DNA from: Candidatus Aminicenantales bacterium
Lineage (GTDB): Bacteria; Acidobacteriota; Aminicenantia; Aminicenantales; UBA4085
Reading direction: 5' to 3'
Assembly: GCA_049515535.1 (NCBI GenBank)
Contig: JBEKTZ010000007.1
Coordinates: forward strand, 124,001-188,000
Length of the DNA stretch: 64,000 nucleotides
Shown here one piece after another: positions 6,001 to 9,000 of the stretch (position 1 is the first letter of the stretch; each line of letters opens with the position of its first letter). A program made the position numbers.

Positions 6001-9000
6001 ATGGTTTTATTCCGGAACATTTTTATGCCTCCTCGCGTTCGGGGATGCCTTTGGGGTGGACCTCATAATGCAGAATTTGTCGCGGATCGCCGATATCAAA
6101 GGAATCACGCTCGCGTCGAGCCCGCTCATCTCGGCGAGAACGACTTTTCTCTTTCCCCTGGTCCGGCTTGAAAAGGAGGATGAACTAACTACCCCCTCAA
6201 ACCATTGTAATTCTCGGCCTCTCCGAAAAGCAAGCCAAATGATTTTTTCCGCGGCGCGCCAAATGGCGGTTTCGGACGAGATTTGGTGAGGCTCGAGCCG
6301 GATTATCGGACTCTGCGGGTTTCGGCGATGAGGGCACCGGCGACCGCGACAAGCGTGAATAGGAAAATGTGCCAGACGCATCTGACGGCCAGCCGGCCGA
6401 GGGTCTGCTCTCCCGCCGTCACGCCGGCGTAAAGGGGGGGCAGGAACGTATTCGCCATCGCGTAAAACAGACCGATGGTCCCCCCGCTCAGCGTTGCCAA
6501 AAAGAGCCGCCGGCCGAACGCCGCTCCGCCGGCGAGCCGGCTGATCGCGGCCGAAGCCAGCAGCGGCGCCCAGAGCGCCGCCCACCAGATGTTTCCAAGG
6601 GCGGGGACGTTTCCCTTCCACCGGAAATAGGCGAAGTCGAGGAGCGCGAGCAGGGCCGTCGCCGCCAGGATCAAGGCCGGCGCGTGCGCGGAGCGGGCCG
6701 GTTTTCCGGCCCGCGCTTCCTGGCGGAGCTTCATGCGGCGCCGGATCGTGAGCGGAAAGTTGTAGAACACATCAAAGACGAAATGCTCCAGCCACGCGCC
6801 TTTCTCTCCGAAAACGGGGACGATATGCACGGCGCTCGTCGCCCAGTGGCCGGCCATGAACCGGGCCAGGTCGGGATAGCGATAGGCCATCTGGACCGGA
6901 AAGGCGAAATAGCCGATATACTTGAAGAAGCTCATCCAGAAGGCGATATTGTAGTTCTTGAAATTCTTTTCGCGGAGGATGAGCGAGCTCGTGTAGATCC
7001 CCCGGGCGATCGACCCCGGCGAGATGGGAATGATCTGGAAAATGGCGAAGATGACGCCCGTCGTCAGGCCCGCCTGCTGCCAGGTCATTTCGGAGTGGAA
7101 GCGGAGATAGATGAACGCCGTGATCAGGGCCACGACGTGGGTCGTCGGCATGAGCAGGATGTGGATGGCCAGGCTTTTCAAATATTTCTGGATGAACGGC
7201 TCCTTGATTTGCCCGTCGATGTGTGAGGCCTCGTCGCGGGTCAGCATCCCGTTTCGCTCGCCGGCGGCGATCATGTCGTGGAGCCACTTTTCGCGCTCCT
7301 CGGCTTTGAAGTACAGCCGCACCGGCTTGACGAAGATGAGGAAGAGGCGCTGCCGGAAATAGCGTTTGTCCGTGAGAAAGCGGTGAAGCCCGGACGGCAG
7401 CAGAGAGAACGGCAGGTGGAGGTAATAGCGCCAGGGCTTGTCCGCGATCTTGAGGGCCCGCTCCTCGGAAACGCGGCCCGCCCGGTGCCAGCGGATGAGC
7501 GCTTCGGCGATTCGGGCGCGGCTCGCGCGCATAAAATATCCGGCGCTCGTCAGTATCGCCCCCCAATGACGGCGAAGATAAGTGCGGCCCCAGAGCCCGC
7601 GGAGAAAGGGAGCGAAGAGCGGAAGAGCCCACAGAGGATAAAGCCACCATGTCCGGCCCGGAAAGGCGAAGACCAGAAGGGCCGGCGTCGCGACCGGGAC
7701 GATCGCCAGAAGCAGGAAGACAAGAGAGAGGAGTCCGCTTTTTTCGAGGCGCGCCACCGTCCGTTCGTCGGTTATGTTCCGGACGCGCCAGCTCTGCCGG
7801 AAGGCGCCCATGATCGCCCGCCGGAGCTTTCGGCCGAAGAGGCGGACGTGGTGGTACGTGAAGTCGATCAGCGAATCGCGGTAGGCGCGGTCTTCCCGTT
7901 TCAAACTTTCGAGCGGGGCGCGCATATCGGCGAATTCGCCGGGATGAGCGTCGACGAATTCTTCGAGCTTATTCAGGTTGCCTTTGTCGAATTGGACCAA
8001 ACGGCCGCGGGCAAGCCCCTGGAAAACGAGTTTGATATCCGCCGGGCACTGAGGCGTGACCGGGGTGAGGACCATGCCCGCTCTGAAATCCACGGCGACG
8101 AGGCCCGCTTTCGGATCCGGGTCGCTCGCCGTCCGCTTCATGGCGTTGGGCTGGCTTTTGAGCGACCACCATTCATATTGGCGGGCCAGCTCCACGGCGC
8201 CGATCCGGCGCATGAGCCGCACGAGGCGGGCCATGAACTCGCGCTTGGTCCGGTATTCGGGCGAGCCGGCGTCGCCGTCCGGACGGCCGGGTTTCCCGCG
8301 GCGCCTGTTGTCGAGGTCATCGTCCGCCTCGAACCGCCACATCCGTCCGTCCACCCATTCGCTGATCTCCCCGCAGCTTCCCAGGTTGGCGTCGATCAGG
8401 GTCGCCAAGACGTCCACGACCGCGTTTTCCGAGCCGAATTCGATCTTGGCCGCCCGGCGGATGAATTTCTGCCAGAGCGCCTGTGAACGGCCTGCGGCCG
8501 GCGTGACTTGAAGCGAAAAGGGGCCCTGAAACCCCATGATGTAAACCAGGCTGCGGATACTTCGGCTGAATCCTGACGGGGGGATGAAGATCTTGACGGC
8601 GTAGGCCCGGTCCCGTTCGAGGCCGTGGATGTCGCCCTCGAGAATTTCGATGTCCCGGCAGATGACTTTATAGACCTGCCCGGCGAAGCCTCCGCCGACG
8701 AATTTCTGGATCTCGAGCTTGATCTTCGCCCGGCCGTCGGGGATGACTCCGCGGACTTCATAATCGAGAACGGTTCCCGGCTCGTAGCGGCGGACGCGGA
8801 ACGGCCGGAAGATGTCCTGCTCCCGGAATTTCCGCTCTAAAGCGCGAACCGTGTCGACGGAATAGAAGACGGCCATGAATTCTATTTAATGTCGGCGGCG
8901 AAGGCATTCAGGACTTTTTTAGTTTCTTTGTCCTGCGCGAAAAAGACGAAAGCGAGATTGGTCCGGTCGATCTTAAGGTGCCGCTCGGCGAAGCGGAAAT

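Follow-up and report, generated by a model that had tools for sequence, protein, structure and literature searches.

Introduction

UbiB has a helical insert after strand β3, keeps the catalytic Asp and carries an Ala-rich P-loop; alpha-kinases carry a D-x-Q-G loop and a zinc finger. The site of COQ8, which is grouped with UbiB and ABC1 in the superfamily of protein-kinase-like (PKL) proteins, is reported to be closed to proteins, and its ATPase activity to be stimulated by cardiolipin (10.1101/149823). The pseudokinase HER3 is described as having lost Glu91 and Asp166 while retaining Lys72, Asn171 and Asp184 and still binding ATP, and loss of the Glu91/Asp166 pair is said usually to leave phosphotransfer weak or absent (PMC4718504). 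Unexpected chemistry has repeatedly come to light in conserved families of the kinase fold without the catalytic Asp, reported examples being AMPylation by SelO, glutamylation by SidJ, and NiRAN (PMC10870513), hence the interest of the family described here. A bacterial PKL protein encoded beside the lipid phosphatase PAP2, the putative lipid kinase SEAE1, is reported to pair an αC Arg with an acidic residue two positions past the DFG Asp and to keep its catalytic Asp, D216 (10.64898/2026.09.18.752743).

Bacterial pseudokinase families have been reviewed (PMC12599244). The KINtaro table contains 72 families, HOMD1-5 among them, by name only (PMC10870513), and the 2026 preprint on SEAE1 also names a family CHLO1, of which its main text gives no details (10.64898/2026.09.18.752743). 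As one subfamily of the proteins described below occurs in Chloroflexota, CHLO1, known here by name alone, could overlap with them. No account of the family was found in the literature searched, a search outside which most subscription papers lay.

Here we describe the product of a gene in a 64,000-nucleotide stretch (hereafter the window) of contig JBEKTZ010000007.1 from a Candidatus Aminicenantales bacterium (assembly GCA_049515535.1). The family it represents offers a confident structural model, a catalytic loop conserved across ~20% identity and a membrane domain without a clear fold match that probably closes the active site, and the analysis singles out the residues for mutagenesis and the class of substrate with which testing should begin.

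Results

A single-copy gene in a large, unannotated family

The gene is a single open reading frame without internal stop, encodes 857 aa (P0001), has a GC3 of 0.82 and is present once in its own genome (Table 1). In the model of the protein, the kinase strands are preceded by one short helix only (residues 7–19), and helix 102–116 is inserted between β3 and αC. The variable four-helix tail is missing from members of ~700 aa. Immediately upstream is the gene for a 525-aa protein, weakly similar to TPR/Omp28, whose end lies 5 nt ahead of the start codon; the co-oriented upstream genes also include two M16 peptidase subunits; this arrangement is local synteny only and is absent in distant members.

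Table 1 Features of the 857-aa gene and its surroundings in the window (positions within the window; residue numbers refer to P0001).
Feature	Position	Strand	Basis
Whole gene, 857 aa (P0001)	6303..8876	-	ORF reading, copy-number search
Predicted kinase-like core, ~residues 26-345	7842..8801	-	Model secondary structure and VIA rows
Gly-rich loop, residues 61-69	8670..8696	-	Family alignment
β3 Lys95	8592..8594	-	Alignment columns
αC W135-Q136, no Glu; R81-R82 in subfamily II	8469..8474	-	Alignment
Catalytic loop 237-244; Leu239 at catalytic-Asp position; T/S238, S241, Q242, N244 conserved	8145..8168	-	Alignment; inferred register
DFR 263-265, metal-binding Asp; D-L-E in subfamily II	8082..8090	-	Alignment
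Hydrophobic activation-segment hairpin 268-278	8043..8075	-	Covariation with Gly-loop F64 and insert-helix I107
F-D-x-x-D 296-300, conserved in both subfamilies; possible loop-capping Asp or candidate displaced base	7977..7991	-	Alignment
Helical middle region 346-560, hydrophobic hairpin ~374-420; shorter in subfamily II	7197..7841	-	Alignment, model
Conserved membrane domain 561-722 (PISPGS, R625, G655, YP, HWA)	6711..7196	-	Alignment, VIA, covariation
P-V-F-G-x-x-G-x-x-L-E-H motif 687-698	6783..6818	-	Alignment
Variable four-helix membrane tail 723-857	6306..6710	-	Alignment, model
Co-oriented upstream genes	8882..13584	-	Pfam/NCBIfam searches, locus comparison

The initial annotation had found no family or PDB sequence match for this protein, and none emerged here: no Pfam family matched at E ≤ 0.1 and no NCBIfam family at E ≤ 10, PADLOC profiles matched none of four proteins, and a 139-row family profile retrieved nothing below E 0.29 from PDB sequences. 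All 30 hits in the ESM Atlas were without a common family. Of the 8000 candidates scored in a word-indexed search, 2666 proteins fell at E ≤ 0.001; all 120 of the matches listed lacked a Pfam domain, in agreement with the large unannotated family proposed earlier. The exhaustive search yielded 417 clusters at 50% identity, with many fragments among them.

The family also proved wider than had been noted. Weak hits in 301 Acidobacteriota genomes were proteins of 560–690 residues with the same layout, here called subfamily II, which aligned with the main-family profile over their full length (501 columns, HH probability 99.85, E 6e-31, 19% identity). A profile of subfamily II retrieved 286 proteins, again with no Pfam domain in any of the 120 matches listed. 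Source names for this subfamily were Planctomycetota, Phycisphaerae and two cyanobacteria, and it was also present in Acidobacteriota (nine hits in 401); other source names were Aminicenantes, Fermentibacteria, Chloroflexota/Anaerolineales, Kiritimatiellia and a deltaproteobacterium. Members of the family run into the thousands and span at least seven named bacterial groups, with subfamily II in named cyanobacteria. Within the class, 49 of 151 genomes carry the family, as do all three genomes of the Fermentibacteria phylum, a patchy distribution with a copy number of essentially one. No relatives were found in the plasmids and viral contigs searched, and at annotated loci the neighbours are housekeeping genes; neither a PADLOC profile nor a defence-island or mobile location, as for an anti-phage defence kinase, was observed.

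The predicted fold is that of a kinase

An AlphaFold2 model built from a 139-row alignment reached pLDDT 93.5 and pTM 0.88 for the whole protein, superseding the earlier model (pLDDT 79). The best 50 rows of a VIA structural search were filled by canonical kinases, and all 50 were kinase domains (49 of 50, best Z 9.7, in the initial annotation). YabT headed them (6g4j; Z 10.0, rmsd 4.3, 186 aligned), with PpkA (5hnv; Z 9.8, rmsd 3.9, 184 aligned), DYRK1A (Z 9.6) and the TRPM7 alpha-kinase (Z 9.5) close by; Foldseek rows were likewise kinases, none at E ≤ 0.001. As was recognised from the start, these Z values are middling, and they are tied, so that they establish the superfamily but do not single out a nearest family. 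None of the best 50 VIA rows was a UbiB, SelO, IucA or PI3K/PI4K chain, and two viral models named UbiB/ABC1 were weak Foldseek rows only. The predicted bilobed kinase fold, together with the putative Gly loop, β3 Lys, catalytic-loop Asn and DFG Asp, places the protein in the PKL superfamily. The canonical Gly loop, A-x-K strand and E-W hinge that it carries would fit a normal ATP orientation. We consider a large, unannotated PKL-fold family with an integrated membrane domain to be real.

Comparison with described branches of the superfamily sets the family apart from each. Like the Hanks-type kinases YabT and PpkA, it has the Gly loop, β3 Lys, loop Asn and DFG Asp, but at 13–16% identity, without catalytic Asp or αC Glu, and with a membrane domain that in the model is inserted into the C-lobe and completes it. 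The alpha-kinases TRPM7 (1ia9) and MHCK A (3lkm) aligned over the contiguous 35–297/330 (Z 9.5 and 9.4), but the family has no Pfam alpha-kinase hit and neither their D-x-Q-G loop nor their zinc finger. UbiB/ABC1/COQ8 proteins are membrane-associated PKL proteins with a lipid-linked function, which the family may share, and they have C-terminal membrane helices and a helical insert after β3, as the model of the family protein does. The family protein, however, lacks the N-terminal KxGQ domain, has a Gly-rich loop where theirs is Ala-rich and has no Pfam ABC1 hit; on the first two counts it is not a member of UbiB/ABC1. Nor were the N-terminal signal peptide and soluble exported domain of the exported Fam20/CotH-like kinases found. 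Family hydropathy of residues 1–60 is ≤ 0.2, without an N-terminal signal peptide, and the hydrophobic segments present are internal membrane helices, which upholds the distinction from Fam20-like kinases drawn in the initial annotation.

A conserved active site that appears to lack the catalytic base

In the model, N244 is followed by short strands at 245–248 and 259–261 and then by D263, the usual order of Asn, β7, β8 and DFG, from which the register of the catalytic loop was taken. This register, deduced from the sequence together with the secondary structure, puts L239, five residues before N244, at the catalytic-Asp position. Main-family column 239 holds L, C, W, M or F, with no Asp among the residues listed for 126 rows, and the corresponding position in subfamily II holds Pro in 120 of 121 rows and Ile in one, with no Asp. 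Anywhere within 237–243, Asp occurs in only 4 of 126 rows, at the loop ends in the rows inspected, and of the 73 proteins matched by a motif search of P0278–P0355, none has an Asp at any of the six positions preceding the Asn. The αC helix likewise has no Glu: W135 is found in 112 and Q136 in 111 of 121 rows, and subfamily II has R81-R82 instead. Thus both the HRD Asp and the αC Glu of an active Hanks-type kinase appear to be missing, and with neither residue in place the protein is formally a pseudokinase. The name "membrane kinases" used earlier is not supported by this evidence, and describing the KSQPN loop as unusual, though correct, was an understatement, as the catalytic Asp is lacking throughout the family.

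The residues for ATP and metal, on the other hand, are kept across ~20% identity. The motifs first reported at 61–69, K95, 240–244 and 263–265 and, in the membrane part, at 617–622 (PISPGS), 652–656 (KYIGY) and 677–679 (HWA) were recovered at those positions, as conserved and not, as had been written, invariant. G61 and G63 are conserved at 84–86%; K95 is Lys in 111/119 main-family and 118/119 subfamily II rows, the loop Asn (N244) is present in 118/126 and 121/121, the DFG Asp (D263) in 120/124 and 121/121, and E697 in 111/118 and 121/121. The catalytic loop has been conserved and has not decayed (Q233, W236, S241, Q242 and N244), the KSQPN residues themselves occurring in 93 (K240), 119 (S241), 118 (Q242), 95 (P243) and 118 (N244) of 126 rows. 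In subfamily II the loop reads W-Q-A-G-x-G-N-P-V-A-x-x-N and is nearly invariant, the DFG equivalent is D-L-E, and the Lys, Asn, Asp, the two Asp of F-D-D-x-D and the C-terminal Glu are each found in 118–121 rows. One degenerate clade (P0164, P0172, P0182, P0196) has lost the ATP motifs and kept those of the membrane domain.

The residues lost and kept are the same as those reported for HER3-type pseudokinases, but the family is bacterial and polytopic, has no ectodomain and was seen with no partner kinase; the likeness is one of pattern, not kinship. As in SelO and SidJ, the catalytic Asp is missing from a conserved loop (described for SelO in PMC12409994), but the family differs from both in its canonical Gly loop and hinge, in giving no sequence hit to them and in being an integral membrane protein. 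The R82–E201 pair of subfamily II could be a counterpart of the αC Arg–acid pair reported for SEAE1; here, in contrast to SEAE1, PgpA and not PAP2 is the phosphatase partner, and the catalytic Asp is absent.

The membrane domain appears to pack onto the kinase core

In most of the best 50 VIA rows the alignment extends to model residue ~700–714, onto C-lobe helices of the target, so that the helix following the membrane segments appears to replace part of the C-lobe. Mean-field covariation was run twice, on 495 rows (effective 240) and on 378 intact main-family rows from which subfamily II and degenerate rows had been removed (effective 137; 101,040 pairs). Expected sheet pairs were recovered, for example V94–L160 and V156–A245. 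Four pairs linking core and membrane domain ranked highly in the first and second run, respectively: D189–T710 (4 and 3), L110–I618 (32 and 22), S104–S630 (74 and 32) and D187–F707 (46 and 100). In addition, the activation hairpin covaries with the Gly loop (F64–C277) and with the inserted helix (I107–M268). A further pair, Q242–F657, fell from rank 24 to 52,068 once subfamily II and degenerate rows were removed, and was dropped. The depth of the covariation is low, and subfamily structure can produce such pairs.

These data suggest that the membrane domain packs back onto the kinase core and appears to be part of the catalytic unit; the membrane segments are joined to the core, as first described, but not simply fused to it. 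The membrane-facing acceptor side of the site is probably covered by the tip of the Gly loop together with the hairpin, the inserted helix and the PISPG motif, and a site covered in this way would resemble that of COQ8.

Residues 345–857 folded alone with pLDDT 94.4. A structural search with this model gave no match at Z ≥ 8, and its rows cover the variable four-helix tail only; residues 345–722 were thus barely tested by it, and a new fold is not claimed. The notion that the tail is a decayed PgpA was discarded, as the best 50 rows contain generic four-helix bundles (best Z 7.8–7.9) and no PgpA-like chain.

Genomic context points to lipid-phosphate and sugar-phosphate genes

The initial annotation had taken from the gene neighbourhood a hint of a lipid or glycolipid substrate, which is upheld here. 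Among the 77 representatives scanned, two carry PgpA as a C-terminal fusion that takes the place of the tail: in P0128 the motifs look intact, and in P0143 both halves are degenerate. Nine of 102 loci have a separate, same-strand pgpA 18–191 nt directly upstream. A FastTree tree of 91 rows puts these nine pgpA loci on one branch and the fusions on another, which makes two associations at most. A predicted complex of the protein from one such locus (L101) with its neighbouring PgpA scored 0.00, giving no verdict. Two genes upstream of pgpA, this clade has a HIT-family ATP adenylyltransferase, and at two loci (L113 and L126) an HpnN/MMPL-like transporter ends 4 nt upstream of the family gene.

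The neighbours named earlier were found again (of 102 loci, 30 have manC nearby, 29 have PMM and 9 have pgpA), but the constant one is a phosphohexomutase and not ManC. Among 48 members of Aminicenantia other than the source genome, counted within the fetched flanks, a phosphohexomutase was present in 32, in several orientations (15/15 in group f2, 9/12 in f4, 8/15 in f9, 0/5 in f1 and 0/1 in f6; three f9 loci had < 450 nt of downstream flank). The synteny control aspS was near in 22 of 48 but in 0/15 of f9. For most of these arrangements an ancestral gene order and a single inversion suffice as an explanation. Not easily explained in this way are two sister genomes (G120 and G122), each with an adjacent mutase, the two in opposite orientations; these mutases, read as unrelated paralogues, are 27% identical to each other and 31–41% to the usual orthologue, which is apparently absent, the adjacent gene being the best mutase match in each genome. 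Two of the four genomes of this genus have no adjacent mutase.

No PMM was found in the fetched flanks of the window's own gene or in those of five of five same-family genomes; in the source genome, pgpA (contig C4) and pmm-manC (contig C5) are both detached from the 857-aa gene. No lipid gene was nearby at the Fermentibacterota, Chloroflexota-like and most subfamily II loci examined; at the Fermentibacteria and most subfamily II loci the neighbours are unrelated. Overall, the family's link to genes for lipid phosphates and sugar phosphates recurs, but unevenly.

Replacement of a known lipid kinase was also considered. For LpxK it was rejected, as the genome contains lpxK. No dgkA was found in the genome, which is 94% complete, but four DAGK_cat genes pass the cut-off, so that a gap in diacylglycerol kinase is not evident.

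Discussion

The best reading of the family, to which we give a probability of roughly 40%, is that of an ATP-dependent phosphotransferase that works without a catalytic base on a lipid acceptor. The cytoplasmic kinase-like core would bind Mg-ATP in the usual orientation and pass the γ-phosphate to a membrane-embedded acceptor. This might be the head group of a phospholipid, a phosphate on a lipid or a sugar linked to one. On its acceptor side the site would be closed, and fed from the bilayer, by the membrane domain together with the hydrophobic hairpin of the activation segment. The missing base could be accommodated if the acceptor were already ionised, as a phosphate monoester is, or if D297/D300 or E697-H698 served as a replacement acid, and a PgpA-type phosphatase would then be an eraser or the next step.

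Arguing for a lipid phosphotransferase are the retained Lys, Asn and Asp, the conserved loop, the core–membrane covariation, PgpA, the HpnN/MMPL-like transporter and the phosphohexomutase. Against it stand the absence of base Asp and αC Glu from every subfamily, best fold matches that are protein kinases and not lipid kinases, with middling Z, the restriction of pgpA adjacency to one clade and of PgpA fusion to one clade, PMM adjacency that can mostly be inherited synteny, the distance of the window's own gene from pgpA and pmm-manC, the loci without a lipid gene nearby, and the degenerate clade. ATP binding, phosphotransfer, the lipid acceptor and the replacement base are what we infer; the fold, the residues kept and lost, the packing signal and the gene context are the observed part. 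Rather more tentatively, the family may constitute a new class of active pseudokinase, a base-less integral-membrane lipid kinase or lipid pyrophosphate synthase with its membrane domain in the C-lobe. If so, then together with PgpA an undescribed phosphorylated lipid or glycolipid would be made and removed in several little-studied phyla.

Of the alternatives, the one that survives best, somewhat unlikely though we judge it, is an ATP-binding pseudokinase that yields no phosphorylated product, either a nucleotide-sensing switch or scaffold like HER3 or a lipid-stimulated ATPase like COQ8/UbiB, acting on a lipid intermediate in the membrane. The residue pattern matches that reported for HER3 (PMC4718504), COQ8 is described as a membrane-bound PKL protein that hydrolyses ATP when bound to cardiolipin (10.1101/149823), and the degenerate clade retains membrane motifs without ATP motifs. 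No partner kinase adjoins the family gene in the annotated loci, however, the near-invariance of the subfamily II loop goes beyond what a scaffold needs, and the PgpA fusion with intact motifs (P0128) fits a phosphorylated product.

Improbable in our estimation is a transferase of the SelO/SidJ type, which would use ATP for adenylylation or ligation, for instance to activate a sugar phosphate or an acyl group and attach it to a lipid. SelO is reported to be an active AMPylase without the catalytic Asp (PMC12409994), a residue that appears to be missing from the loop here too; neighbouring genes make sugar-1-phosphates and nucleotide sugars, and the adenylyltransferase of the pgpA clade would suit such a role. 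The Gly loop, A-x-K strand and E-W hinge, which would fit ATP bound in the normal orientation, and the lack of any Pfam SelO or IucA hit count against it.

A further possibility is that the protein is an ATP donor to another protein: it would prime a phosphohexomutase at its catalytic serine, or make the mutase's bisphosphate activator, and the base would come from the mutase site. The frequency of PMM in the flanks of f2, f4 and f9 in several orientations, and the divergent adjacent mutases of the two sister genomes, speak for this. The link, however, is restricted to Aminicenantia and fails in half of the G120/G122 genus, the conserved membrane domain would be left unexplained and the covariation suggests a covered acceptor side, so that we rate this possibility as decidedly improbable.

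An ordinary membrane Ser/Thr (Hanks-type) signalling kinase diverged beyond detection is disfavoured and very unlikely, since, although YabT and PpkA are the top fold rows, there is no HRD Asp, αC Glu, Pfam or NCBIfam kinase hit or extracytoplasmic sensor domain, and the membrane domain appears to be built into the C-lobe.

Two database and search results concern the boundaries of the family. The protein labelled "UppP" by JGI (P0335) is full-length and otherwise an ordinary member, for which no Pfam domain had been precomputed, and one weak genome hit (L116) is an ordinary Ser/Thr kinase whose similarity is confined to the Gly-loop region.

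Gene neighbourhoods of the family gene

Whereas in many relatives the family gene and aspS adjoin each other, in the window they are separated by a four-gene two-component and HD-domain block of lower GC3, which looks like an insertion between the two. On the upstream side, a phosphate-type ABC transporter is encoded, and such a transporter was found near the family gene in 13 of 102 loci.

Among relatives in genus g62, the usual phosphohexomutase (PMM) orthologue appears to have been lost, and unrelated replacements are carried instead; a replacement adjoins the family gene in two of the four genomes. 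Within family f33 (loci L127 and L140-L142), genes of the distant subfamily II have a SorA/SoxC-like molybdoenzyme gene on one side and, on the other, a short-chain dehydrogenase gene in convergent orientation.

Features of the window and of loci of relatives (L numbers)
Feature	Position	Remarks
PAS histidine kinase, receivers, HD_5	window 1531-6020	four-gene block of lower GC3
Phosphate-type ABC transporter	window 13783-18099	one binding protein, two each of permeases and ATPases; lies upstream of M16 peptidase pair
AbiEi/AbiEii pair	window 18395-20261	type IV toxin-antitoxin
Divergent PEP-carboxykinase-like gene	L124:9567-11432	family f20; directly upstream of family gene
Replacement mutase	L132:8426-9769	genus g62
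Replacement mutase	L133:408-1808	genus g62

Further along the window, we take 26930-31953 to be a single run that encodes a membrane protein and a related pair of exported proteins, each ~280 aa long; a metallophosphoesterase is probably encoded there too. The Fam20-like kinases named in the initial annotation are likely encoded in this run.

Unusual family members

One clade of the family (P0164, P0172, P0182 and P0196), whose members are 450-530 aa long, has lost the Gly loop of the ATP site and carries Arg in place of the loop Asn, with the membrane motifs retained. At the other extreme of length, the 1216-aa Planctomycetes member P0142 has ~500 additional C-terminal residues, comprising membrane helices and a soluble part, and this extension had no Pfam match. 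In one genome (G055:C81:12896-15197), the family gene is split over two frames, reflecting either a frameshift or an assembly error.
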